DNA from: a virus
Taxonomy: Duplodnaviria; Caudoviricetes
Direction: 5' to 3' (one strand)
DNA: 64,000 nucleotides
Virus record (IMG/VR): IMGVR_UViG_3300000203_000003
Span: 77,979 to 141,978 of that record
Below are positions 32,107-51,770 of the stretch, piece after piece; the first letter of the stretch is position 1; each line of letters begins with the position of its first letter. The notes under the pieces were generated by a model. The model did no database searches. It saw only the letters and a list, made by a program, of their open reading frames with translations, and was not told where the DNA came from. The position numbers and the translations under genes are program-made.

Positions 32107-32138
32107 GCCAAAACTACAAATAAAGATAAATACTTAAT

Positions 32139-38173: not shown

Positions 38174-40591
38174 ATGAAAACAATCGTCGTAATGCCAGGA
38201 GGCTTTCATCCGTTTCACGCAGGACATTATGCTCTGTATAAATCAGCAGTGGAGGCCTTTCCCGGCGCTGATGTGTATGTCGCTGCAACAAACGATCAAA
38301 AAGCACGACCTTTCCCGTTTGCGATTAAAGAGAAACTTGCTAAGATAGCCGGCGTTGCTCCAGGACATTTCGTTCAGGTGTCAAGTCCATTCAAAGCAGC
38401 AGAGATAACTCAGCACTACAACCCTGATCAGGATGTGCTGATCTTCGTCCGTTCAGAGAAGGACCGAAACGAACAACCTAAGCCCGGTGGCATGAAGAAG
38501 GACGGCACCCCATCTTACTTTCAGCCATATACAGGAAAAGGTATGCAGCCGTTCAGTAAACACGCTTACTTCGCCTATCTGCCTACGGTAGAGTTTGGTC
38601 CTGGCATCACCGGCGCAACAGAGATTCGCAATGCCTGGCCGACATTGAATCCTACTCGCAAGACAGCAATGGTTATGAGCCTGTATCCAGCAACGAAACA
38701 GAATCCTCAGCTGGCTGCGAATGTAGTCAAGATGATGGATCTTGGCATGGGCGGCCAGCCCGAAGTGGATGAGAGTAAAGAGGAGGCACTTCAGTATGCT
38801 ACTCAGGCTCATGCCGGACAAACGAGAGCAGGTGGTGCTCCTTATATTTCACATCCGATAAGTGTAGCAGATTCAATCAAGCAATACAAGAAATCACACA
38901 ACCTCGATGCGTTAATCAGTGCTGCACTATTACATGATACCGTAGAAGATACTGACACCACTCATGAAGCCCTACACGATTTATTCGGTGGTTTAGTTGC
39001 CTCACTAGTTCAAGAACTAACTAGCGACAAAGAGAAGATTCAACAAATGGGCAAAGCTGATTATCTGGCACAGAAAATGGCTGCTATGAGCAGTTATGCT
39101 CTGGTGATAAAACTTGCCGATCGACTCGACAATGTTCAAGATATTGCTACTGCTAAAACTCCAGAGTGGAGGGCGAAGTATAGGGCAGAAACTGAAAAGA
39201 TTTTAGACTATATTGAAAAGCATCGCGCCTTATCAGGAACGCACCAGAAGTTAATAGAACTTATCCGTAACAAGTTAGGCGAGATTGATAGTCATCAAGG
39301 TGTAACAGAAGACACCTCATCCTCAAGTCTTCCGGATGTTCTGTATCACGGTGGTGAACACCAGATAAGCAAGTTCAGAATTCCACCCTACGGTGTATTT
39401 TTCAGTCCCCATAAAGAATGGGCAGAGGAATACGGTGACGCGCTAACTACCGCAAAAGTCAACGCCACGAAAGTGTATGTCGCCGATTCTGATAACTGGA
39501 ACGATCCAAACTCGTTTGACGCTAAAGTGCTTGACGCACTGTTTGACCGTGACTATAAAACTTTGGCAGTATGTGTCAAAGTATTACAGGCTCGAGGCTA
39601 TCAGGCACTTCAAACGCAGACTGACAGCGAAATGGTTGTGGTGTTCCCGGGAACTGAGATTCAAGTATTACCGCCGGATGAAGGAGTTGAGTTAAAATTC
39701 AACTCAAATTCACTCAACGAAAGTCAAATCTATTCGTATTTTAAGAAGAAATATTCTCTCTACGAAAGTGAAAAATTCCCACAGAGAATGGTATCAAGTA
39801 TTAAAAAGATAAATGAAACAGACAACCATAATGAAATTAAACAATTTATCCATCGGGTTGAAACCTTTGACTATCCTGGTCGGATCAAAGTAGGAGATTC
39901 CTTGGCAGTTTTAGATTTTGAGATAAACTTCGCCTGGAAAGAAATTGAAGGTCGTGGATTTACACAGGCAAAAAGAATAACAAAAATATCGGCTGATAGC
40001 GCCGGAATAAATTATATAGAATTTGAAGACGGTGACCGATATCCTAGACTTGCAAAAGCAACGTTCGGAGATAAACAACGACCCATGGAATTTGCCGCGT
40101 ATTTTAAAAAATCAAATGATGCGGAACACGCCATTACGGTATTAGGGTTGATCGTGCCCGATACATGGGAATACAATACCAGTGAAATTCAACGTGGCAA
40201 CACTTCTGAAGTTGACGAACAATTCACCACTAATCTGACAACCGAGGGTGACCTAAATGAACTCCATTCGGACACCTTACATAGTTATGCAGGAAAGGCA
40301 TGTGACCGTAATACCAAGAGTATTAGGCAAGCAGATTGGAAACGAACTACCCCGGATGAGAGAGAGAAGATTCACCAAAAAGTTCTAAGAAGATGTGACG
40401 GTATAGGAAGGGCTTTGGACAAGGATCATGCCAAGCAGGAGAATGAACTGTTGAAGAATATTCCACCTCATTTACGCAAAAAATTAAGGCTTCCTGAACC
40501 ATATGTTGATGAAGGCTCGGACATCCAGTTGTCCAAACCAATCAAACCTTTCAATCAGGTTAAACAATATCCTCTGACCGCCCTGCTATAG
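38174..40591 (+). CDS. Multidomain protein: HIGH-family cytidylyltransferase-like + SpoT/Mesh1-type HD hydrolase + ART-like + unknown domains
   Basis: PGGFHPFHAGH; AH.GQ.R..G.PYI.HP..ALLHDTVEDT..KLADRLDN; VLYHG..GVFFS..A..YG; linkers VDES, QGVTED, LNES, INET, VDEG. Confidence 0.75.
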   Translation: MKTIVVMPGGFHPFHAGHYALYKSAVEAFPGADVYVAATNDQKARPFPFAIKEKLAKIAGVAPGHFVQVSSPFKAAEITQHYNPDQDVLIFVRSEKDRNEQPKPGGMKKDGTPSYFQPYTGKGMQPFSKHAYFAYLPTVEFGPGITGATEIRNAWPTLNPTRKTAMVMSLYPATKQNPQLAANVVKMMDLGMGGQPEVDESKEEALQYATQAHAGQTRAGGAPYISHPISVADSIKQYKKSHNLDALISAALLHDTVEDTDTTHEALHDLFGGLVASLVQELTSDKEKIQQMGKADYLAQKMAAMSSYALVIKLADRLDNVQDIATAKTPEWRAKYRAETEKILDYIEKHRALSGTHQKLIELIRNKLGEIDSHQGVTEDTSSSSLPDVLYHGGEHQISKFRIPPYGVFFSPHKEWAEEYGDALTTAKVNATKVYVADSDNWNDPNSFDAKVLDALFDRDYKTLAVCVKVLQARGYQALQTQTDSEMVVVFPGTEIQVLPPDEGVELKFNSNSLNESQIYSYFKKKYSLYESEKFPQRMVSSIKKINETDNHNEIKQFIHRVETFDYPGRIKVGDSLAVLDFEINFAWKEIEGRGFTQAKRITKISADSAGINYIEFEDGDRYPRLAKATFGDKQRPMEFAAYFKKSNDAEHAITVLGLIVPDTWEYNTSEIQRGNTSEVDEQFTTNLTTEGDLNELHSDTLHSYAGKACDRNTKSIRQADWKRTTPDEREKIHQKVLRRCDGIGRALDKDHAKQENELLKNIPPHLRKKLRLPEPYVDEGSDIQLSKPIKPFNQVKQYPLTALL

Positions 40592-40655
40592 GGTAAATAG
40601 AAATATTTTGAGCCACTTTGGCCAGAGTAAATATTTCTATCTTACAGAGGATCTC

Positions 40656-41531
40656 ATGGCAAAGAAAAAAGAAGCAGCAACTATTCCAGTTGAAAAGTTA
40701 CAAGAAATCGTAGAACAAAACCCAGCAGCACCGGTATCCGAACCTGCTCCCGGAACAGTACAAGTCAACGTAGACTTTCTGAAAACAACACGGGTTCACA
40801 TTGGAATGCCATGTTATGGTGGTATGCTGACTGAATCTACATTCATGTCGTTTATCAAGTGGTCAAACACCGCACGACAGCTTGGCATCGATTGGACATT
40901 GGAAACAATGGTCAACGAATCGCTTATCTCTCGCGCACGAAACACACTGACAGCAAAGTTTTTGGACATGCCAGATGCCACTCACTTGTTCTTCGTTGAC
41001 GCAGACATTGGTTGGGAACCATGGCACCTGTTAGTTCTGTTGAATCGTGACGTTGACGTTATCGGTGGACTATATCCAATGAAGACAATGCCAGTCAAGT
41101 GGGTTGTTAATGGATTTGATGGTGCCGAAGAAGGACCTGATCAACTACAAGAAGTCAGCAAAGCGGGCACAGGCTTCCTGTTGATGAAGAAACACGTATT
41201 TGAGAAGTTGAAATCTCACCCGGCAGTAAAGCAATATGTGAACGATATCGGTCTTGATCCGAAATATGACAAACATCTGAAAACATATTTCGACACCGCA
41301 GTTCGTCAAAATCGTTACTATAGCGAAGACTGGTGTTTCTGTGAAAACTTTAGAGATATCGGCGGAAAAATTTGGATGGACAAACGAGTTCTGCTGCGTC
41401 ACACCGGCACTTATACTTTCTGTATGGAAAATCAGGAACACTTGTTGAATACGATCGGACCCATGTATTTAGATCAACAGCGACAAAAAGGCTTCAAACT
41501 AATAGACCAAGACGGAAACGAGATTAAGTAA
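40656..41531 (+). CDS. GT-A fold glycosyltransferase-like protein
   Basis: GMPCYGG, ESLISRARN, FFVDADI (DxD), GTGFLL, YSEDWCFC, LRHTG; start reassigned to ATG 40656 (SD GAGGA). Confidence 0.75.
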   Translation: MAKKKEAATIPVEKLQEIVEQNPAAPVSEPAPGTVQVNVDFLKTTRVHIGMPCYGGMLTESTFMSFIKWSNTARQLGIDWTLETMVNESLISRARNTLTAKFLDMPDATHLFFVDADIGWEPWHLLVLLNRDVDVIGGLYPMKTMPVKWVVNGFDGAEEGPDQLQEVSKAGTGFLLMKKHVFEKLKSHPAVKQYVNDIGLDPKYDKHLKTYFDTAVRQNRYYSEDWCFCENFRDIGGKIWMDKRVLLRHTGTYTFCMENQEHLLNTIGPMYLDQQRQKGFKLIDQDGNEIK

Positions 41532-41545
41532 AGTCTTTATCAAAT

Positions 41546-41567
41546 AAAAGGCTCTTCGGAGCCTTTT
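41546..41567 (+). terminator. Intrinsic terminator
   Basis: AAAAGGCTC-TTCG-GAGCCTTTT. Confidence 0.85.
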
Positions 41568-41600
41568 CCTATCCTCGCAGTAATAGGACTAAATAATAGT

Positions 41601-42266
41601 ATGATTGCTTATTCTAAACTAAATCCACCAACTGGCTTCTATGTATATATGTGGCTTCGGGAAGACCAGAGTCCATATTATGTAGGAAAAGGTATGACTC
41701 GCAGAGCTTGGCGATCAGGATCTCCAATTGATCAAACCCGCATTGTTATAGTTGAGCATATGCTCACTGAGGAGGAAGCGTTTAGTAAGGAACGACAACT
41801 CATTAAAGAGTACGGTCGTAAAGACCTCGGAACAGGCATATTAAGAAATATGACTGATGGCGGAGAAGGAGCATCAGGGCAGGTACAGACAATTGATACT
41901 ATTGAAAAGCGACATAAAACACGCAAAGAAAATGGAAATTGGGGCAACGCATCACTGATAGGTAGTAAACAAGCGGCGGAAGAAATATCCAGAAAAAGCG
42001 AAAGACAACGCGGTCAAAAACATTCTCCTGAGCGTAATGCGAAGCGCAGTGCAGCATTGAAGGGTAGAAAGTTATCCCCTGAACATATAGCCAAGCGAAC
42101 TGCTACGGTAACTGGCAGAAAACAACGACCTGAAGTTATTGAAAACCGATCAGCGCAACTAAGAGGGCGAAAGCAAGAGGTGATAACTTGTCCACATTGT
42201 GGCAAATCCGGCGGGTGCGTAGTTATGAAGAGGCACCACTTTGACCATTGTAAATCTATCCGATAA
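41601..42266 (+). CDS. Free-standing GIY-YIG-like endonuclease with NUMOD3 repeats and CPHC finger
   Basis: FYVYMWLR..PYYVGKG, ILRNMTDGGEG, G.K.SPE repeats, CPHCGK..HHFDHC. Confidence 0.85.
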   Translation: MIAYSKLNPPTGFYVYMWLREDQSPYYVGKGMTRRAWRSGSPIDQTRIVIVEHMLTEEEAFSKERQLIKEYGRKDLGTGILRNMTDGGEGASGQVQTIDTIEKRHKTRKENGNWGNASLIGSKQAAEEISRKSERQRGQKHSPERNAKRSAALKGRKLSPEHIAKRTATVTGRKQRPEVIENRSAQLRGRKQEVITCPHCGKSGGCVVMKRHHFDHCKSIR

Positions 42267-42273
42267 ATACTTG

Positions 42274-43533
42274 ATGGATCTCAAAGAACTCGACTCATTT
42301 AAACTGGCAGACGCAGTGACTTTTCACACGGAACTGAACCCTAAACTTTTCAGAGGTCGTCACCTACATCCTGAAGTTGAAAAGCAACTGAAAATCATCG
42401 CTGAAGATTTCATTGAAGAAATGGGTCTGTCTGATATTAACGTGGTTGATATCACAATCTCCGGTTCAAACGCAGCATACAGTTATACGAAACACTCTGA
42501 TCTAGATTTACATCTACTTGTGGATATGTCGAAGTTAAATAATGACGCAATGTATCTGGAGTTGTTTGATGCGAAAAAGACAATCTATAACGACACACAC
42601 GACATAACAATCAGACACATTCCAGTTGAGTTGTACATTCAGGATTCAAATCATCAGGTTACAAGCGTCGGTGAGTATAGTATTCTGCGTGATGAGTGGA
42701 TCAGAATCCCAAGTAAGCGTAGAGCAAACTTCGATCAAACAGCAACGGCTGCGAAGTATGAAAAACTGTCGAAGTTGATAGACAGAGCGTTGAAAACATC
42801 TGACCTGAATAAGATAAATCATCTGATCAAAACAATACATCGCTACAGACAAGCAGGGCTTGACCAAGGCGGCGAGTTCGGACCAGAGAATCTTGCATAC
42901 AAAGCAATACGAACAACTGGCCAGATCACTAAGCTGTATGCTCTGCGAGATAAACTTCATTCCAGAAGATTGAGTATCGAGGGACAGTATTCTCAATTGG
43001 AAGAATCAACGTCTACTCTTCCTAAAGTATTGTATCATGTGACTCCGGCGAAGAATCTGCCTGGCATAATGAGTAAAGGGTTGATACCGAAAGTAGGAAG
43101 TAGATCAGCACAAATATACAACGAACAATCTGGTATATTCTGTTTCCCCGATAAGGTATCAGTCGAAGATGCGCTGATGAATTGGTTAGGTGATCAGTTC
43201 GATGAGAATGAAACTCTGGCACTACTGGCTATAGATTCGACAGGACTACAAGGTAAATATACTCCTGGTGCAGAATATGAAGTTGTGATTACTTCTCCGG
43301 TCCCAGTCAGTAATATAAGTGTCGCATCAAAAGATGTAGACGCGATGTTTGAATCAGCATCAGGTTACATCCCAAGCAACGCTCAAAAGAATGATCCAAG
43401 ATACAAAACAGCGTTAACTGTAGATATCAAGCCGGATACGATCCAAGTAAATGCTAAAAAATTAGGGTTAGGTGGAATAAAAAGATCAGGAATTCCTCAG
43501 TTTGCCCGGGCCGATGGCAAAACAAAAAGATAA
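42274..43533 (+). CDS. Pol-beta-superfamily nucleotidyltransferase + ART-like domain fusion
   Basis: ISGSNA.Y.YT..SDLDLH, VELY; after QLEES linker LYHVT..I...GL.P..GIF; tail after MFES. Confidence 0.7.
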   Translation: MDLKELDSFKLADAVTFHTELNPKLFRGRHLHPEVEKQLKIIAEDFIEEMGLSDINVVDITISGSNAAYSYTKHSDLDLHLLVDMSKLNNDAMYLELFDAKKTIYNDTHDITIRHIPVELYIQDSNHQVTSVGEYSILRDEWIRIPSKRRANFDQTATAAKYEKLSKLIDRALKTSDLNKINHLIKTIHRYRQAGLDQGGEFGPENLAYKAIRTTGQITKLYALRDKLHSRRLSIEGQYSQLEESTSTLPKVLYHVTPAKNLPGIMSKGLIPKVGSRSAQIYNEQSGIFCFPDKVSVEDALMNWLGDQFDENETLALLAIDSTGLQGKYTPGAEYEVVITSPVPVSNISVASKDVDAMFESASGYIPSNAQKNDPRYKTALTVDIKPDTIQVNAKKLGLGGIKRSGIPQFARADGKTKR

Positions 43534-43607
43534 ATAGTAGTGTAGTTCGCGGAAGTGGAATTCCCAACTACTCTAATGCCCAAGGAGCAATCAGCATGAC
43601 TATTTAT
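43530..43607 (+). promoter_or_regulatory. Conserved structured endonuclease leader, copy B
   Basis: ATAAATAGTAGT-GTAGTT-CGC-GGAA-GTGGAA-TTCC-C-AACTAC-TCTAAT-GCCCAAGGAGC-AATCAGC-ATG-ACTATTTAT. Confidence 0.85.
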
Positions 43608-44267
43608 TATCTTATGGTTAAGACCCATAATATTACCGGTTTAAAATATCTTTGTCAGACAAAACGCAAAGACCCACACAAATATCTCGGATCCGGTAAA
43701 GATTGGTTGATCCATCTCATGCGTCACGGAAAAGAACATTCAACTGAAATTATTATTGCCTGTCAGAGCAGACAGGAACTGTACTATTGGGGAATGTATT
43801 ATAGTAGCCTATGGAGGGTAGTAACCGGCCAGGATGATTTCGGCAATAAAATATGGGCTAACCGGATTAAAGAAAACGGCGGGGGCGAAGGTATGACTTC
43901 GGCGCTAGCCACTGAAATTCAAAATAGGCCGGCTACAAAACTTAAAAATTCAGATTCCCACAAAATGTTATGGAAAAATAAAGAATATATTAAAAAGCAA
44001 ATAGATGCCCACCAATCCATAGATTATCGCACTCGGAATAGCGTACTTCAAAAAGAAGTACAAAATAGACCCGAAGTTAAAGAAAAGTTGAGTGGCAAAA
44101 ATAGTTACAAATACGATCATACAATTTACACCTTCATCCACACTACAGGGATTATAGAAACGTTAACTCAATACGACCTAATTAGGAAATATGATCTATG
44201 TCAGCCAAATTTAAATTCAGTTGTCCGTAATAAAAGACGAATACACAAAGGCTGGACGATAGCATAA
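43596..44267 (+). CDS. Free-standing GIY-YIG-like endonuclease (MTIYY family)
   Basis: First ~33 aa nearly identical to the 28124 protein; divergent C-terminus ending HKGW. Confidence 0.8.
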   Translation: MTIYYLMVKTHNITGLKYLCQTKRKDPHKYLGSGKDWLIHLMRHGKEHSTEIIIACQSRQELYYWGMYYSSLWRVVTGQDDFGNKIWANRIKENGGGEGMTSALATEIQNRPATKLKNSDSHKMLWKNKEYIKKQIDAHQSIDYRTRNSVLQKEVQNRPEVKEKLSGKNSYKYDHTIYTFIHTTGIIETLTQYDLIRKYDLCQPNLNSVVRNKRRIHKGWTIA

Positions 44268-44344
44268 CCATAATCCGCCCTTGCTTCGAAAATAAACTCT
44301 CTTTAAACCAATTTTGATAAATAGTATATAAGTGGAAATATACT

Positions 44345-46447
44345 ATGCAAATCAAACACCTCGAAGAATGTTCAACAACTGCAGGCGCTGTAGCAACATT
44401 CGCTCAACCATTTGAAACCGTTCAAAAGCGCACTCCGGAGAAGAAACTTAAAGGTAGCAATCTACTCAAAGGTATCAAAACTTCAGCGAAGTATGCTAAC
44501 AGCCTACACGAAGGCGAGGGTTTCCCGCATGATGTAGATCACATGCCCGGTCAAACTATCAAACACCAGAATACAAACTGCACTGCTTGTCATGGTCGCA
44601 AGGTGCAGTATAAACTCGGTGGCAAACTATACCCAGACAATAAGAAAGGTGCCACTAAAGTTATATGCCCAACTTGCAACGGTACCGGTGATAAGGAGCA
44701 TACCGACACAGAAGATGGCCGCAATTATGCTAATGCGTTTGGTACATACCAGTATGAGTCAGTCGAAGAAGGCGCCAAGGTAGATCGCATGGTCGGTCAT
44801 GTCAAATCAAGCGAGAAGAAACTTGGCAAGTCCTCGAAAGAAGCAGAAAATATCGCCTGGGCAACCGCCAACAAGCGTGGTATGCTTGATAACAAGAATA
44901 AGAAGGTGGCGGAAGGCTTCTCTAATGATATGTCTACAGAAGATATGATTGCGTATCTAAGACAGCACCACGATGAGAATCTACACCCCGATTATCTAAA
45001 TCATCTTACTAATACGAACAGCAAGTTTGTGCTAAAAAATATCCCACTAAATTCCATCAGAACTGAATTGTCAGGATTAGATAGAACAAAAGTAGAGCAA
45101 TACAAAAAGATGGACTTTAGCAAGGCTCCCCCTATAGTAGTTGGTAGTGATGGTAATATATTAGATGGCTATCACAGAGCCAATGTAGCAAAAGCATTAG
45201 GGATCTCTACTATTAAAGCCTATGTTGGCATTAAAGGTCAGCAAGGTGTGGCGGAAGCAGACGATAAAAAAGAATGGCAAAAACAAAATGCTAAACCAAA
45301 ACAGTTAGGAAAAACTGAAAAGTATTTCTCTACGAGACATACTACTAAAGATACTGGCGCAGCCGACAAAGAGCAAGGTGTGGCGGAAGGCTCCATATCT
45401 GATTTGTTGAACAAGGATCCTACATCTCCAAAATTTAACGACCATTCAGCACCACGCAAAACAAAACATTCTGGTAGCACCCCGACCCCATATGAGCAAG
45501 GCAGATTAGATGCCCACAGAAAAAAGTCATATAACAATATCCACAACAGCGAACAGGATGCAGAAGATTATAAAACTGGATATAGACACGTTAAATCTAG
45601 GCAAGGTGTGGCGGAAGCAAATACACTACCAGCAGGACAGGCTGTTGCAGCACAACCTCAAGCAGGTAAGAAGTCTGGCCCGATAAACATGGTGGGCCCT
45701 GATAAGAACAAGCACGTAGATGTTAGTGCTAATCCTTCTGTGGCACAATCTAATGACCCGGAATTAAGACGCAAATCTGAGTGGGCGCAGCGACACTACG
45801 GTGCTACTCTAAGCCCTGATGAAGCCATGAACAAGTGGATGCAGCGAGGACTAGACATTACTGAAAAGAACGATAAGCGCCACGACGCAGAGATTGCCAA
45901 ACTGATGAAAGAAATAGCCGGCCTTAAACGTATCATTAATAACCTGCACCCGGCGGCAACCGGAGCATCTAACGTTGCTGAAGGTGAAATCACAGAAGAT
46001 GATGTAGTTCTATCTGCTGACCGTCGTCGCCCTAAATCAGGACTGCTATCTAAACCAGAGCAGGCGATGAACCCCGCTGATGTGGTGAAGCTTGACGTTC
46101 CATTGCTGATCAGACTGCTTGAGTTTGCCAAGGAAGATGCGGCTGACGATATGGCTCTACATGATCTTGCTGAAAAGCTAGTAGCAGGTTGCCAACGTGG
46201 CAGAACTCTGACAATGAAAGACTATGATAGTCTTGTCCCTTCAACACCAGAAGCACCTGGCCCAGATGAACAGGAGGACTTCGAAGGCAAGTTCAATCAA
46301 GAGATGGATGAAATCAGTGATCCCGCAGTAAAGAGTTATCTTGGCAAAGCAATGACTGATACACTCACAGGTAAGAAAGATCGTAATTCTGGTATGAAAC
46401 GTGCGATTAGCAGGTTAGCTGGGACAAATAAACCACTGACTAAATAA
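44345..46447 (+). CDS. Modular polyprotein: CxxC Zn module, ParB/Srx-like module and small modules separated by (QG)VAE linkers
   Basis: CTACHG..CPTCNG; PPIVV..ILDGYHR; linkers LHEG, VEEG, VAEG, QGVAE x3, NVAEG, ITED, MDEI. Confidence 0.7.
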   Translation: MQIKHLEECSTTAGAVATFAQPFETVQKRTPEKKLKGSNLLKGIKTSAKYANSLHEGEGFPHDVDHMPGQTIKHQNTNCTACHGRKVQYKLGGKLYPDNKKGATKVICPTCNGTGDKEHTDTEDGRNYANAFGTYQYESVEEGAKVDRMVGHVKSSEKKLGKSSKEAENIAWATANKRGMLDNKNKKVAEGFSNDMSTEDMIAYLRQHHDENLHPDYLNHLTNTNSKFVLKNIPLNSIRTELSGLDRTKVEQYKKMDFSKAPPIVVGSDGNILDGYHRANVAKALGISTIKAYVGIKGQQGVAEADDKKEWQKQNAKPKQLGKTEKYFSTRHTTKDTGAADKEQGVAEGSISDLLNKDPTSPKFNDHSAPRKTKHSGSTPTPYEQGRLDAHRKKSYNNIHNSEQDAEDYKTGYRHVKSRQGVAEANTLPAGQAVAAQPQAGKKSGPINMVGPDKNKHVDVSANPSVAQSNDPELRRKSEWAQRHYGATLSPDEAMNKWMQRGLDITEKNDKRHDAEIAKLMKEIAGLKRIINNLHPAATGASNVAEGEITEDDVVLSADRRRPKSGLLSKPEQAMNPADVVKLDVPLLIRLLEFAKEDAADDMALHDLAEKLVAGCQRGRTLTMKDYDSLVPSTPEAPGPDEQEDFEGKFNQEMDEISDPAVKSYLGKAMTDTLTGKKDRNSGMKRAISRLAGTNKPLTK
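44906..45617 (+). repeat. Dispersed in-frame direct repeats GCAAGGTGTGGCGGAAG (QGVAE)
   Basis: Exact 17-mers at 45241, 45373 and 45601; 10-nt core GTGGCGGAAG also at 44906; spacings 342/132/228 nt. Confidence 0.9.
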
Positions 46448-46451
46448 TCGT

Positions 46452-48275
46452 ATGAGAGCATTAGAGTTTTTAAACGAAATAGCAATGAATCCGAACTCCC
46501 TGAGAAGGGACGCCGAGAAGATCAACGCCATGGCAGGCATGGAGTTTGAGATGTATGTCCCGAACGCAGGTGGGCCAGACAATGACTACGAATCTGTGCC
46601 TGACTATAGTATGGATGAGCAGGCCAATGATATAGACTATATCATCCGCTTCTTTAACGGCGGCGATGGCTACAATGATCGTAGAGATTTAGCAATGCTG
46701 CGTGACGAACTTGAAGATGCTTACTCTGAATGGGGCATGGAGCAACAATCTGAACAGTGGCACCAAGAAGGTAAAGAACTGCTGAAAACATACATGGAAG
46801 AAAATGATTGGGACGCCGACGAAGCAATCGATCAAGCAATGAATGATCTTGGATTCACCGCAGAAGAAAAAGACGAAGCCAAAGACGGTGGAGACTCTGC
46901 AAAAGGCATACAGACAAGTAAAGAGTTACCTGATACGCCGGCGTATCATAACTGGGTCCGAGCCGTTACCGTTGCTGAAGAAGCATTTGATGAAAAAGTA
47001 GAAGAAGAATGGGACTCTCAAGGCAGGTTATATGACAAGGCCCGTGAAGAATGGGAAAATGATTGGGAATGTCCTGATCAACGTGACTTCCTACGTGATA
47101 ACAACCTCCGTCGCATGAGTGATGTGGAAAATAACTACACTATTACATGGCCGTATCGCACCGCGCCTGAAGCCGGTGAGCTTGACATGGATTCAGTCGG
47201 TGAGATGTTCAGCAAAGCAATGGGTAAGAAAGTCATAACCGGTGGATATCATCGTGCCGGTCGTTCTCCAACTGCATACTCACTTGAACCGGACGGAAGT
47301 CTTGACTCACCGAATGAACCTGAAGATGGTGGTCTGGAATTCATCAGTCCGCCGATGTCTATCCCTGATATCATCGCTGATCTGAAGAAAGTTAAAGCAT
47401 GGGCAGATGAGACCGGTTGCTACACAAACGAATCAACCGGTCTTCACATCAATGTCAGCGTGCCTCAAGGTGCCGACAGAGACTATGTTAAACTTGCTCT
47501 GTTGCTCGGAGATGATTACATACTTGAACAATTCGGGCGTGAAGCAAACACATTCTGTAAGTCAGCACTGGCCAAAGTAAAGCAATACGCAATGACACGT
47601 GATGCAGATGCCAAAGCAGTTCTGGAAAAGATGCGTTCAGGTCTTGACAAGTTTGCGTCAAAAGCAATTCACAGTGGCAACACAGACAAATACATCAGCA
47701 TCAACAACAAAGGTGACTACATTGAGTTCAGATCGCCCGGCGGCGATTGGTTAGATGATAACTTCGACAAGATTGAAAATACGTTGTTGAGAACTGTAGT
47801 TGCGCTTGACGCCGCAAGTGATCCACAGAAGTATCGCAAAGAATATCTGAAGAAGCTGTACAAGATCCTGGCCCCAAAGGGTGAAGGCGATCCGATTGGT
47901 ATCTTCGCCAAGTATGTCGCCGGTGATATGCCAGCAGCCGCCCTAAAAAGCTTCATCAAGCAGGTACAGCTACAAAGAAATATTAAGAAACAGGGCCCCG
48001 AAGTAGCAGCGCCGGCTGCTAGCATCAGAACACGCTCCGGTTATCTGACTCCTAATCAAGATTGGGAACCTGAAACAACTCAACCCGGCACTACGCCTGG
48101 TATGGTCCCGTGGGCGCTTGTTAATCGTAATACCGGTGAACACATTGGCGAACCATTTATGGCGCCACCGGGCGCCGTAAACGCCGGCGCATATGACCGA
48201 GCGATTGAGATAGTAAATCAAATGGGACTAACACCGGAGCAACGACGGGAACTCATCGTTCAACCGGCAGACTAA
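46452..48275 (+). CDS. Putative amidoligase (COOH-NH2 ligase type 2)
   Basis: GMEFE, EPDGSL, GLEFISP, STGLHINV, KY..IN, IEFRSPG; N-term MRALEFLNE. Confidence 0.8.
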   Translation: MRALEFLNEIAMNPNSLRRDAEKINAMAGMEFEMYVPNAGGPDNDYESVPDYSMDEQANDIDYIIRFFNGGDGYNDRRDLAMLRDELEDAYSEWGMEQQSEQWHQEGKELLKTYMEENDWDADEAIDQAMNDLGFTAEEKDEAKDGGDSAKGIQTSKELPDTPAYHNWVRAVTVAEEAFDEKVEEEWDSQGRLYDKAREEWENDWECPDQRDFLRDNNLRRMSDVENNYTITWPYRTAPEAGELDMDSVGEMFSKAMGKKVITGGYHRAGRSPTAYSLEPDGSLDSPNEPEDGGLEFISPPMSIPDIIADLKKVKAWADETGCYTNESTGLHINVSVPQGADRDYVKLALLLGDDYILEQFGREANTFCKSALAKVKQYAMTRDADAKAVLEKMRSGLDKFASKAIHSGNTDKYISINNKGDYIEFRSPGGDWLDDNFDKIENTLLRTVVALDAASDPQKYRKEYLKKLYKILAPKGEGDPIGIFAKYVAGDMPAAALKSFIKQVQLQRNIKKQGPEVAAPAASIRTRSGYLTPNQDWEPETTQPGTTPGMVPWALVNRNTGEHIGEPFMAPPGAVNAGAYDRAIEIVNQMGLTPEQRRELIVQPAD

Positions 48276-48276
48276 T

Positions 48277-48663
48277 ATGAGAGCCACAGAGTTTCTATCC
48301 GAGAGTCAGCAAACAACGCTGAATGATTTATACGACAGTGATCTTCCGGGGCGCGATGAATCTCTATGGGATGAGATAGGAACAATGGATCTTGACACGC
48401 CGTTGATGATTCATACGATGCCCCGATACAAAATAGAAATCATGTTGCTTGGTCAATACCGGGTCGAGCACCTTGATGAAATTGTTGACATGATGGCCCC
48501 GGATCAGAAAGAAATTCTTGAACGCTACATGAATGATCCAACATTAGCTGACAAAGTTATTGTGATATCTGAGCATAGGATCATCGACGGCAATCATCGT
48601 GCGTTGGCAGCAGCATATAAAGGCACTTCGATTAAATACATTGATCTATCAGAACTACAATGA
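48277..48663 (+). CDS. ParB/Sulfiredoxin-like nuclease-fold protein
   Basis: IIDGNHRALAA; N-term MRATEFLSE. Confidence 0.7.
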   Translation: MRATEFLSESQQTTLNDLYDSDLPGRDESLWDEIGTMDLDTPLMIHTMPRYKIEIMLLGQYRVEHLDEIVDMMAPDQKEILERYMNDPTLADKVIVISEHRIIDGNHRALAAAYKGTSIKYIDLSELQ

Positions 48664-50225
48664 GAGCCCATATATTTCTATACGAAACAATAGATCCTAC
48701 AAGAGAGGATCTGGTCAGCGTGGCTCAATGGCTACACGCCGAACCTGATCAGATTGAAGTTCATATCAAGCATGAACCTATTGACAAGTTCCTGGGTCAG
48801 ATCAAAGAGATGCACGGAACCTTCAATGAGTTTCCCAAAGACGAACGGCGAACAAACAAGATTCTTCGTCTGTTGAAACAAGGTGCCACTCCGATGCCAA
48901 TGTATGTGGAGCAGGGCGATCCTGATCTATTCGTCATGGAAGGTCGCCATCGTATGGTTGCGTTCTGGCTCGCCGGAATGAAGACAGTTCCCGTGGCGTA
49001 TGCGTCAAAGAAGTTAGACGAAACAATAAATCCTGATATTCTTAATAAAAAATTCAATCATACTCAAGAGATTGGTGATTATACTTACAAAGCGTCAGTT
49101 GAGATATTTATGGATGAACCATTGTTGAACATTAAAGCATATGATGGTAATAAAGAAATAGGTCAAATATTGTTTCAAATATTTGACTGGGAAGATGATA
49201 CGAACGATGGATACATGGAAAGTGGCGGCACTGAAGTTGATCCAAAATATAGAAATAAAGGTGTAGCATCCACTATGTATGCGTATGCGAAGATGTTGGG
49301 CAATGATATAAGACCTAGTTTTCAACGAACTACAGCGGGTAGAGGAATGTGGGACGCATGGCAAAAGTCAGGTGATGATAAACATCTCGTCGCTGAGGAT
49401 TCCTATAGTCCGCCAACACTACACACCGGTGACAAAATTTTGAAGGGAAAATTTAAGAACAGTCCTGCTGAGATTAAAGGCTTCGGTAAGGACAAACATA
49501 ACCAGCCAACCTTGCGGACAAATAAAGGTGACATACAGTTGTTCAAGCCTCGAGTGGTTAAACTTATGCCGGATAAATTAGATGAATACGAGCGTGATAC
49601 TCCCAACAGCAGACAAATCTTCTCCAAGTTAGAAGGGCTCGGATACAAGAAGTTAGGTCACGGTGCTGACGCCACAGTGTGGGCGAAGGATGATAATCAT
49701 GTCATCAAGATTCTGATGCCCAGACGCACTTTGCCAAGTGATGTCACCAATGCTGAAAAAGGCTTTATGACCTTTTATGAATTCTGTAAAAAGCATCCGG
49801 AGTTACCTAATCTGCCGCGATTTATTGATATTGGTGGGCAAGGAACTACTGTGTTTGAAATTAACGGGACGCCGTATAGACAAATCGCAATGGAACGACT
49901 GTTGCCGATTCCAGACAAAAGCTTTGAGCAACGCATAGTGTGGTTGCTGAGTGATCTAGCAAAGATCAGAGCGCCCTGGAGCAATGTAGTCAGCATGTTG
50001 AAGAAGCCGGGTACTTGGCCTCCTAGTTGGCAGGAGATGCCTCAGTTGATTGCTGAGAGATTCGCTGACCCGGTAGTCAGCAAACAATTCGGAATATTAT
50101 ATTTGACAATGTCCAGGTTGTATCATGCTGGACTCAAATCTGGACTCGGTTGGGACCTTCATACCGAGAATGCAATGATGCGGCGAGACGGCACCATTGT
50201 TATCGTTGATCCGTATTTTACCTGA
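48660..50225 (+). CDS. Polyprotein: ParB/Srx + GNAT acetyltransferase + small beta domain + protein-kinase-like domain
   Basis: EGRHRM; VDPKYRNKGVASTMY..T.AG..MW; LGHGADATVW..VIKI..ERL..DLHTENAM..IVDP; linkers LYE-T, LDE-T, VAE-D, LDE-Y. Confidence 0.78.
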   Translation: MRAHIFLYETIDPTREDLVSVAQWLHAEPDQIEVHIKHEPIDKFLGQIKEMHGTFNEFPKDERRTNKILRLLKQGATPMPMYVEQGDPDLFVMEGRHRMVAFWLAGMKTVPVAYASKKLDETINPDILNKKFNHTQEIGDYTYKASVEIFMDEPLLNIKAYDGNKEIGQILFQIFDWEDDTNDGYMESGGTEVDPKYRNKGVASTMYAYAKMLGNDIRPSFQRTTAGRGMWDAWQKSGDDKHLVAEDSYSPPTLHTGDKILKGKFKNSPAEIKGFGKDKHNQPTLRTNKGDIQLFKPRVVKLMPDKLDEYERDTPNSRQIFSKLEGLGYKKLGHGADATVWAKDDNHVIKILMPRRTLPSDVTNAEKGFMTFYEFCKKHPELPNLPRFIDIGGQGTTVFEINGTPYRQIAMERLLPIPDKSFEQRIVWLLSDLAKIRAPWSNVVSMLKKPGTWPPSWQEMPQLIAERFADPVVSKQFGILYLTMSRLYHAGLKSGLGWDLHTENAMMRRDGTIVIVDPYFT

Positions 50226-50318
50226 ACACACCTTAGGACCGCAACTTAGTTGCGTGTGTGGGGTCGTCGCTCACCCTAATAACAATGGAGTCGTGCCCGG
50301 GTTTATTTAAAGAGCGAC
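50226..50318 (+). ncRNA. Candidate structured intergenic RNA with pseudoknot
   Basis: ACACA/TGTGT enclosing CGCAAC-TTA-GTTGCG; GGGT/ACCC stem whose loop GTCGCTC complements GAGCGAC at 50312. Confidence 0.45.
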
Positions 50319-50346
50319 ACTTTATTCTCCCTAGCATAAATACACT

Positions 50347-50922
50347 ATGCGCGCCAATCAATTTATCACAGAATCAGCTTTAAATGACCTAGAGCGTCAA
50401 CTACCAAGCCACCTTACTCACGGTCACAGTGCCCTTGACAATCTTATGCACAAAATTGCCCGTAGACATAATCTTACAGACGATGCACTACATGATATGT
50501 TCAAACGAAAGCACCTTAAGTCGCCACATGATCTGATCAAAGACAAACTACACGAAGAAGGTGATGATAATTCAGACGAACAAACCAGAGACTTCATCAA
50601 GTGGGCTATAGAAGTGCTGCATATTCAACAACCATATCCCAAGATCACTCTAAGCAAAGACTCAGACGCAGCCAGAGAAGGTCACCACACTGGATTGAAC
50701 ACTCCTGCTGCCAACACGATCTGGATTTATGTCGGGAACAGAAACCTTATTGACATTCTCCGTACTGTTTTCCACGAACTCACCCATACCAGACAATATC
50801 AGATGGGCATGGTCAAAGACGGCGACAGTTATCCCGGCAGCCCCATCGAAGTACTGGCTGATGCCATGGCCGGAAAGTATATCAAGATATACGGCAAGGA
50901 ACATCCGGAGATATTCCAATGA
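50347..50922 (+). CDS. Zincin-like metallopeptidase-domain protein
   Basis: ILRTVFHELTH..Q..E..A (HExxH); N-term MRANQFITE; internal LHEE linker. Confidence 0.7.
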   Translation: MRANQFITESALNDLERQLPSHLTHGHSALDNLMHKIARRHNLTDDALHDMFKRKHLKSPHDLIKDKLHEEGDDNSDEQTRDFIKWAIEVLHIQQPYPKITLSKDSDAAREGHHTGLNTPAANTIWIYVGNRNLIDILRTVFHELTHTRQYQMGMVKDGDSYPGSPIEVLADAMAGKYIKIYGKEHPEIFQ

Positions 50923-51770
50923 GAGCAAATGAATTTATCAATGAGGGGATTGAACGACTACGACCTGACGATTACGAAGGTGGTAAGGGCTATTTAGGTG
51001 GCACAGACTCCGGCAAGAAAGTATCTGCCTTACCAGGTGGCAGCGGTCTTTTGTACAGTATAGGGAGTGGTAACTGGGGAAGCACCGCTATTAGAATTTG
51101 GGATCCGAACGGAGAAGACTTTATTCAGGCTAAACGAAGAGGTGCAGAATCAAAGCCAGTTATTCAACGCCGTCGATTCCATGGTAGAGTACGCGACTGG
51201 GAACGAGAACAACAAAAACTAAAAGCACCGGGTCAATTAATCGGTGAACTTACTGTGGATAAGGCAAAATCTTTTCCCCTGAAGAATGCTGTTAAAGTTG
51301 GAACAATCACAGTTGACGAGGACTATCGTGGCATAGGTCTGGCCAAAGCATTATACGGCATTGTGCTGACTATATTGAAGTTACCATTACTAGCCGGGAC
51401 AAGTCAAACACCTGGCGGCCGCAAGAACTGGGTTAGCATATCAGGAATCCCGGGCGTGGATATGAAAGGGTATGTGTCTGTCCATGATGATAATTTAACT
51501 ACCATAAAAATAGATCCCTACGCCCGGAGAGGCGATAAACAGTATGATGAAAAACGTAATAAAAAGGCTGATCAGACGATTGACATCATCATGGGACAAT
51601 TAGGCGGACAGTATATTGGTAAGGGCGGGTATGGTTCCTTATACTTTGCATTTGATGTGCAGCCCAATGACACCGGGAAAGAATTAGAAGCCGCTGTAAA
51701 AACTAAGTTAAGCACTGTATATAGTGGTGAATATAACTCCGGACTATACGCCGTCTGGACAGGAAAATGA
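50919..51770 (+). CDS. GNAT acetyltransferase-like protein
   Basis: VDEDYRGIGLAKALY..QTPGGRKNW; N-term MRANEFINE. Confidence 0.75.
   Translation: MRANEFINEGIERLRPDDYEGGKGYLGGTDSGKKVSALPGGSGLLYSIGSGNWGSTAIRIWDPNGEDFIQAKRRGAESKPVIQRRRFHGRVRDWEREQQKLKAPGQLIGELTVDKAKSFPLKNAVKVGTITVDEDYRGIGLAKALYGIVLTILKLPLLAGTSQTPGGRKNWVSISGIPGVDMKGYVSVHDDNLTTIKIDPYARRGDKQYDEKRNKKADQTIDIIMGQLGGQYIGKGGYGSLYFAFDVQPNDTGKELEAAVKTKLSTVYSGEYNSGLYAVWTGK

Follow-up and report, generated by a model that had tools for sequence, protein, structure and literature searches.

We analyze here a variable locus at positions 38174-51770 of the window, i.e., of the whole 64,000-nucleotide stretch of viral DNA (Caudoviricetes) that forms the final 64 kb of the 141,978-bp IMG/VR contig IMGVR_UViG_3300000203_000003, for which CheckV gives a completeness of 41%. 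The locus has eleven open reading frames (ORFs), all on the + strand: eight multi-enzyme genes, one glycosyltransferase-like gene and two homing-endonuclease genes. It should be noted that the enzyme modules and the short N-terminal leader, or tag, carried by most of the proteins each end in the motif of a head protease, [VILM]-x-E, which suggests that capsid loading, cutting and delivery to the host are the probable fate of the proteins. In the following, we describe the genes, then the leader and the joints between the modules, and then the readings that can be given of them.

The multi-enzyme genes

The first multi-enzyme gene (38174..40591) encodes a protein of 805 amino acids (aa) that has no N-terminal tag because its catalytic motif begins already at residue 12. 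Based on Pfam and on the module breakpoints and joint variants in relatives, it is divided into seven modules: a HIGH nucleotidyltransferase (residues 1-194), an HD domain (201-372), an ART-like domain (380-500), an unknown domain (504-676), a mini-peptide, a second unknown domain (697-777) and a conserved C-terminal tail of ~22 aa. The motif fits five of the six boundaries, with the joint Glu codons at 38771-38773 (E200), 39308-39310 (E379), 40217-40219 (E682), 40259-40261 (E696) and 40511-40513 (E780). The second is the 430-aa protein headed by a pol-beta nucleotidyltransferase (42274..43533; the ORF opens at 42241, and translation begins at its codon 12, a Met), where the pol-beta nucleotidyltransferase-like head is followed by an ART-like domain (256-371) and a conserved C-terminal tail (372-430), with the joint Glu codons E255 (43003-43005) and E371 (43351-43353). 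The third is a jointed 700-aa protein (44345..46447) that starts with a variant leader (E8, 44366-44368), followed in order by a stretch resembling the start of the mature capsid protein and a zinc-ribbon segment; then come a ChaB-like mini-module (143-187), a ParB-like module and segments of low complexity, the joint Glu codons being E142 (44768-44770), E190 (44912-44914), E304 (45254-45256), E348 (45386-45388), E424 (45614-45616) and E546 (45980-45982).

The other five proteins carry the leader proper. They are an amidoligase-like protein of 607 aa (46452..48275; leader Glu E9 at 46476-46478), a ParB-like protein of 128 aa (48277..48663; E9 at 48301-48303), a 521-aa protein composed of a ParB-like module, a GNAT module, a small beta module and a kinase (48660..50225; candidate cut Glu codons E9 at 48684-48686, E121 at 49020-49022, E246 at 49395-49397 and E309 at 49584-49586), a 191-aa protein with an N-terminal module and a zincin-like H-E-x-x-H domain (50347..50922; leader Glu E9 at 50371-50373, joint E70 at 50554-50556) and a GNAT-like protein of 283 aa (50919..51770; E9 at 50943-50945). 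At least two unrelated effector domains are thus combined in one polypeptide in the 805-aa, 430-aa, 700-aa and 521-aa proteins, and in relatives of the 191-aa protein additional modules are inserted between the same two ends.

The original prediction had assigned an enzyme repertoire to these eight genes, of which the HD domain, the kinase fold and one GNAT domain are borne out, while the rest is below cut-off, weak or at the level of motifs. The strongest call is the HD domain (PF13328, E 2.8e-17 in Pfam). The kinase fold is confirmed by Foldseek matches to APH and protein kinases, with the Kinase-PolyVal family scoring E 0.05, and the first GNAT domain exceeds its Pfam cut-off when scanned alone (23.1 versus 20.7 bits). 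For the ART-like domains the ART-PolyVal match is below the cut-off (24.7 versus 31.2 bits), with Atlas giving a lead to the Arr, PARP and Tox-ART clusters, and the amidoligase is also below the cut-off (19.5 versus 22 bits). The HIGH nucleotidyltransferase, the pol-beta nucleotidyltransferase, the second GNAT domain and the H-E-x-x-H zincin have weak matches only. The ParB/Srx modules, including those at 44900-45244 and 48687-49022, have no sequence match in Pfam or the Protein Data Bank (PDB); the copy at 48277-48663 has an Atlas lead, the other two are assigned by motif only, and when two of the ParB-like units were compared their similarity to each other was undetectable.

In the comparison of module order across relatives, which the original prediction had suggested as a check, heads, tails and gene order are constant and the middle modules are swapped. 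The order that is kept is the HIGH-nucleotidyltransferase-headed gene, the glycosyltransferase-like gene, the pol-beta-nucleotidyltransferase-headed gene, the gene with the capsid-like start and then the tagged proteins, of which the zincin is the last. Each protein keeps its head and tail, and the middle modules that vary among the phages include chitinase, NUDIX, deaminase, sigma-factor-like, GNAT, ART and HD modules. In relatives, a protein of 940-1140 aa with its own conserved start, M-S-x-I-L-K-G-[LI]-x-E-S, stands directly after the gene with the capsid-like start (L153:7514-10528, L159:6884-9928, L161:6152-9583 and L210:6620-9448, where L with a number denotes a fetched locus). This phage lacks that gene and has its 700-aa protein extended instead.

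The leader and the joints

The leader M-R-A-x-E-F-[I/L]-x-E is present on five consecutive genes of the locus, those starting at 46452, 48277, 48660, 50347 and 50919. In the 142-kb contig seven proteins carry it, the other two being encoded by 127-aa genes just upstream of the large terminase (L003:1718-2101 and L003:2098-2481; genome 20718 and 21098). When IMG/VR was scanned with a degenerate DNA pattern of the leader, for which a handful of matches is expected by chance, at least 120 loci and at least 142 ORFs were found. Among the ORFs listed, all 142 have an in-frame stop from a few to ~50 codons upstream, and the leader-bearers are many unrelated families of 65-500 aa; for the 521-aa protein, ~85% of 120 homologues begin with the leader. 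The leader tag is lineage-wide. The two tagged 127-aa families are its most widespread bearers in the IMG/VR contigs, with isoelectric points (pI) of 5.7 and 7.1, i.e., not basic. Outside the window, two further ORFs of 99 aa and 198 aa (genome 38963 and 52707) have leader-like starts ending in I-x-E.

The capsid-targeting sequence of T4 is M-K-T-Y-Q-E-F-I-A-E (PMC8442874). In that leader, residues 4 and 7 are used for targeting and residues 8 and 10 for processing, with the gp21 protease cleaving after L/I-x-E (PMC9026906). The leader of this phage has the E-F-I-x-E core in common with it, so that the Phe, Ile/Leu and Glu positions coincide, although it is one residue shorter and starts with M-R-A.

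We determined the limits of the modules independently of the motif, as homology breakpoints obtained when the window proteins were searched by BLAST against every ORF in the fetched related loci. Among the 38 junction clusters, 17 are located within 4 residues of a [VILM]-x-E, compared with 5.4 expected (p about 5e-5), and among those backed by at least two alignments the fraction is 11 of 14. The claim of the original prediction that domain boundaries fall at [VLI]-x-E is therefore substantiated: the placement is non-random, and all seven boundaries that it named coincide with homology junctions.

More importantly, the same module can stand behind different ends. The GNAT module of the 521-aa protein is preceded here by K-L-D-E and in relatives by the leader, by Q-G-V-A-E, L-M-K-E, V-N-E and others, amounting to ~50 distinct upstream contexts. 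Four more modules, i.e., the small beta module (after E246), the ART-like module, the ChaB-like mini-module and the C-terminal tail, show the same interchange of leader and joint, and stand-alone tagged homologues were found for each module of the 521-aa protein. In a stand-alone homologue of the ART module (L018), the leader keeps the first six residues of the tag and its end is not [I/L]-x-E. Since the same module follows either the leader or an internal [VILM]-x-E in relatives, the end of the tag and the joint are interchangeable, and we consider this interchangeability the strongest evidence on the joints.

Counted over distinct upstream contexts, P1 is Glu in 52 of 52 cases for the ChaB-like module and in 23 of 28 for the tail, and P3 is V, I, L or M in 38 of 52 cases for the former and in all 23 Glu-bearing cases for the latter (background 0.25), with P2 being free. 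Behind the ChaB-like module the reading frame either closes or leads, after a [VLM]-x-E, into one of at least 12 different modules; the mini-module itself (44771-44911, ~48 aa) has 75-93% identity among its copies in more than 60 contigs. In the 700-aa protein V-A-E-[G/A] occurs five times, where about 0.05 copies are expected. At the DNA level most types of joint vary synonymously, which implies that selection acts on the peptide. We also considered that the internal joints might be fossil leaders of fused genes, and rejected it because P3 and P1 persist while no other residue of the leader survives. As a side observation, a 620-aa protein encoded after the terminase (L003:5230-7092; genome 24230-26092), with a weak match to 'virion structural protein', has two V-A-E joints near its C-terminus.

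The structure models can also be compared with the motifs. The AlphaFold model of the 521-aa protein, computed from a 40-sequence alignment (predicted local distance difference test score, pLDDT, 80.8), has low-confidence segments at residues 1-10, 178-182, 238-252 and 296-309, and the candidate cuts E9, E246 and E309 lie in three of them. The candidate cut E121 lies in the inter-domain linker between the strand 109-117 and the helix 125-128, and the other five copies of [VILM]-x-E (E50, E94, E153, E400 and E466) are inside helices or strands. That the candidate cuts are in linkers or disorder and the other copies in secondary structure favours the original prediction, which had proposed this check. 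As modelled, the candidate sites would fit the substrates of a gp21-type protease, i.e., Glu at P1, a hydrophobic residue at P3 and an accessible region. For the 700-aa protein a single-sequence AlphaFold run (pLDDT 40.7) gave nothing usable beyond long unstructured stretches around the joints.

Putative loading into the prohead and alternative readings

Based on these data, we propose the following reading, which we hold to be moderately probable. The locus would be a variable 'cargo locus' whose enzymes are built as strings of modules. The nine-residue leader on most of the proteins would act as in T4, bringing the protein into the core of the prohead. A gp21-type prohead protease would then cut after the Glu of [VILM]-x-E, by which the leader would be removed and the modules separated from each other. 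The freed enzymes would remain in the head, enter the host alongside the DNA and act there on host nucleic acids, proteins or defences. Targeting, cleavage, head retention, injection and targets are what we infer from the sequences.

The protease that this reading requires is present in the lineage. Peptidase_S77 is found above the cut-off in all eight relatives of 98-100% completeness and in one that is 67% complete; among the contigs searched, it is missing only from a 43% fragment and from the contig studied here. The sheath proteins of the eight relatives reach 69% identity to the sheath of this phage, and in one complete relative the gp21-type protease gene is at L214:8531-9184. In one relative the head module is intact and in T4 order, i.e., portal, small core proteins, protease, scaffold and capsid protein, and the capsid protein, which matches T4 gp23 with E 3.5e-38, has four [VIL]-x-E in its first 43 residues. 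The 700-aa protein and its relatives begin with the variant leader and then the stretch that resembles the start of the mature capsid protein (44345-44420; compare L214:10318-10490). The original prediction of injected polyproteins is supported in part: it gains from the leader, the interchangeable joints, the gp21-type protease of the relatives and the linkers of the model, but it loses its single tag, and the contig is without a protease gene, the latter because it is a 41% fragment.

The capsid-like start of the 700-aa protein bears on the reading that the proteins are cytoplasmic enzymes, made late or early, that do not enter the head at all. The leader would then have another role, for example in translation initiation, stability or localisation, and the linkers would be flexible spacers. 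The absence of the leader from the 805-aa and 430-aa proteins would be natural under it, as would the neighbourhood, where not all genes are structural (an AAA+ protease lies upstream and a DNA polymerase downstream). However, the leader has the functional positions of the T4 targeting sequence, as a peptide it is exchanged with internal joints, something that a function in starting translation could not account for, and the 700-aa protein begins with a copy of the maturation region of the capsid protein. We thus regard this reading as very unlikely.

It could also be supposed that the proteins are packaged or injected whole and cut later, not by the prohead protease but by the co-encoded zincin-like peptidase (50347-50922). 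MPTase domains have been proposed to process polyvalent proteins (PMC5512222), and a zincin-like module is present both in this locus and in the longer polyproteins of relatives. The joint motif, by contrast, is that of the end of a T4-type leader and of the capsid propeptide, the assignment of the zincin is weak, and the zincin is itself tagged and jointed, so that we give this possibility little weight.

A third reading emerges when one joint, Q-G-V-A-E, is considered at the DNA level. In 45 of 69 distinct instances it is spelled CAAGGTGTGGCGGAA, despite the rare codons GTG (~16% use) and GCG (~14%). This fixed 15-mer stands at 45245-45259, 45377-45391 and 45605-45619 of the window and at genome 25814 (L003:6814). 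Its 11-mer core has 88 copies in 1.88 Mb of related loci, compared with 0.9 expected, always in the sense frame, and the flanks are unrelated in 73 contexts. G-V-A-E is spelled GTG-GCG-GAA in 74 of 120 instances, versus 11 of 171 for V-A-E without the preceding Gly. One of the two V-A-E joints of the 620-aa protein also uses the fixed 11-mer. To explain this fixation, the candidate that suggests itself is in-frame recombination, and the linker hints at a mechanism of in-frame module exchange.

It can then be argued that the joints and the leader are in-frame recombination linkers and nothing else, short conserved stretches at which phages would exchange modules with the frame kept, the proteins staying whole as multi-domain enzymes. 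The fixed spelling of Q-G-V-A-E, the excess of the 11-mer with unrelated flanks and the clear exchange of modules at joints are all expected from it. By contrast, the other joints (K-L-D-E, L-M-K-E, V-K-E, etc.) are free in their codons and yet have a hydrophobic P3, Glu at P1 and a free P2, which points to a constraint on the peptide that matches the specificity of gp21; moreover, roles in recombination and in cleavage can coexist. We therefore consider it unlikely that recombination is the whole explanation. What the loci appear to contain is a general joint rule at the peptide level plus one linker that is conserved, or has recently spread, as DNA. Tentatively, and with more doubt than belief, it may be suggested that the Q-G-V-A-E joint is dual-purpose, the fixed ~15-20 nt serving as an in-frame recombination splice point and encoding at the same time a cut site of the prohead protease. 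If this is true, exon-like shuffling would lead to rapid combinatorial evolution of the injected enzyme set.

Several observations weigh against loading and cleavage in the prohead as proposed above. The fixation of Q-G-V-A-E as DNA goes beyond what a protease site explains. In the 805-aa protein, one boundary, near residue 503, is off the motif, and there, as at some junctions in relatives, P3 is Ala or Pro. A single targeting tag had been predicted, and the leader is indeed found on five of the eight proteins and as a variant on a sixth, but the two nucleotidyltransferase-headed proteins (38174 and 42241) have joints and no N-terminal leader. The profile search of this contig for Peptidase_S77 and Gp23 gave no valid match, and when the tagged proteins were compared by tblastn with 50,697 phage records, no cultured relative was found. 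The internal proteins of T4 are small and basic. The cargo here, unlike that of T4, consists of large enzymes, and those tagged proteins that are small have a pI of 4.5-7.1 and are not basic.

As regards the two proteins without the leader, their C-terminal tails (40526-40588 and 43354-43530) are kept in all relatives, whatever modules intervene, and a joint precedes each of them. It is a speculation that these tails may be alternative handles.

Known systems and genomic setting

The features described above can be compared with what is known of packaged phage proteins. As for IPI, IPII, IPIII and Alt of T4, a leader of about ten residues that ends in I/L-x-E is common to unrelated proteins, and as in T4 the lineage has a gp21-type (Peptidase_S77) protease, a gp23-type capsid protein and hypervariable loci. 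Unlike the internal proteins of T4, the proteins here are large enzymes whose modules are set apart by internal joints built like the leader end, and some have conserved C-terminal tails in place of the leader.

A second comparison is with the polyvalent proteins of Iyer, Burroughs, Anand, de Souza and Aravind (2017), which are predicted to be packaged in the virion, delivered with the DNA and processed into units (PMC5512222). These are likewise strings of ART, ParB, kinase, HD, GNAT and zincin-type domains. In them, the processing is ascribed to an MPTase in the same polypeptide and the targeting to fusions with MuF or portal proteins (PMC5512222), whereas here the joints match the motif of the prohead protease, the leader is of T4 type and the zincin is in the separate 191-aa gene, though some relatives have it as part of longer proteins. 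The matches to the PolyVal families of Pfam are here below the cut-offs.

In phiKZ, 201phi2-1 and SPN3US, many head or ejection proteins are cut after Glu by a diverged homologue of gp21, at sites that are multiple and redundant (PMC9026906). The phiKZ-type motif is S/A/G-x-E and serves chiefly the removal of propeptides, with no shared leader or shuffling of modules at the sites described. In the Dar system of phage P1 (DarA, DarB, DdrB and Hdf), the head is loaded with large anti-restriction enzymes, and a part of them undergo proteolytic processing (PMC5512222, PMC9024508); unlike at the present locus, they are loaded in an ordered way via Hdf and DarA, with no shared leader and no jointed modules.

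The novelty is hence smaller than originally claimed, when the locus was presented as a polyprotein strategy in a DNA phage, since packaging and processing of polyvalent proteins had been proposed (PMC5512222) and multi-site processing in T4, phiKZ and SPN3US (PMC9026906) was known. With the T4 leader and internal proteins, the predicted packaging of polyvalent proteins and the multi-site processing in giant phages already on record, the locus is a variant on both the T4 and the polyvalent themes. In our full-text literature search, leader-tagged enzyme polyproteins jointed by protease sites were not found described. If the proposed reading is true, widespread uncultured freshwater jumbo phages would deliver a large and fast-changing set of enzymes at infection, for which one short loading tag and one protease rule would be needed. 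The paradigm of the T4 internal proteins would then reach beyond a few small inhibitors and take in modular enzyme polyproteins, the sequence rule would predict injected proteins in metagenomic phages, and a natural design for loading multiple proteins into engineered T4-type capsids would be at hand.

We now turn to the phage itself. Besides the locus, the window has genes for a tail sheath of 1191 aa, tube proteins, an ORF of 3565 aa, an AAA+ protease-like gene and a DNA polymerase. Among cultured phages, the best matches of the sheath are Atu_ph07, Phosso and the PA5oct group, with ~45% identity over part of the protein, and in two complete uncultured genomes of 349-352 kb the full-length sheath is 68-69% identical. 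As judged by these sheath matches, the contig is a piece of a jumbo myovirus, uncultured and belonging to the T4 superfamily, whose genome is ~350 kb long. Megablast of the whole region against the same 50,697 phage records gave no match, and in these searches with the locus the sole match was the HD domain. A single Gp23 match in the contig was rejected as spurious, covering 26 profile positions below the cut-off and lying beside genes of nucleotide metabolism.

The glycosyltransferase-like gene (phrog_1574; 40608..41531) is untagged and conserved in synteny, every syntenic relative having it flanked by the two nucleotidyltransferase-headed genes; it is probably not cargo, and its translation probably begins only at codon 17, a Met. 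The cargo locus is interrupted by the two homing-endonuclease genes, which relatives lack at these positions. One of them (41601..42266; PHROG 314/655) is an insertion in the cluster. The other (43596..44267) is a probable homing endonuclease of GIY-YIG type, as read by motif from the sequence, with no family match in Pfam or PHROG.

Finally, we consider the expression of these genes. Motifs resembling the T4 late promoter, GATAAATA or CATAAATA, are present at 42262, 44316 and 50335, i.e., 12-29 nt 5' of three gene starts, and ATAAATA has 22 copies on the + strand versus 11 on the − strand. Late expression of these genes is plausible from such motifs. The reading that every ATAAATA is a late promoter is weakened by the presence of some copies in cassettes 5' of homing-endonuclease genes. 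An additional copy of the motif resembling the T4 late promoter is located at 32125.

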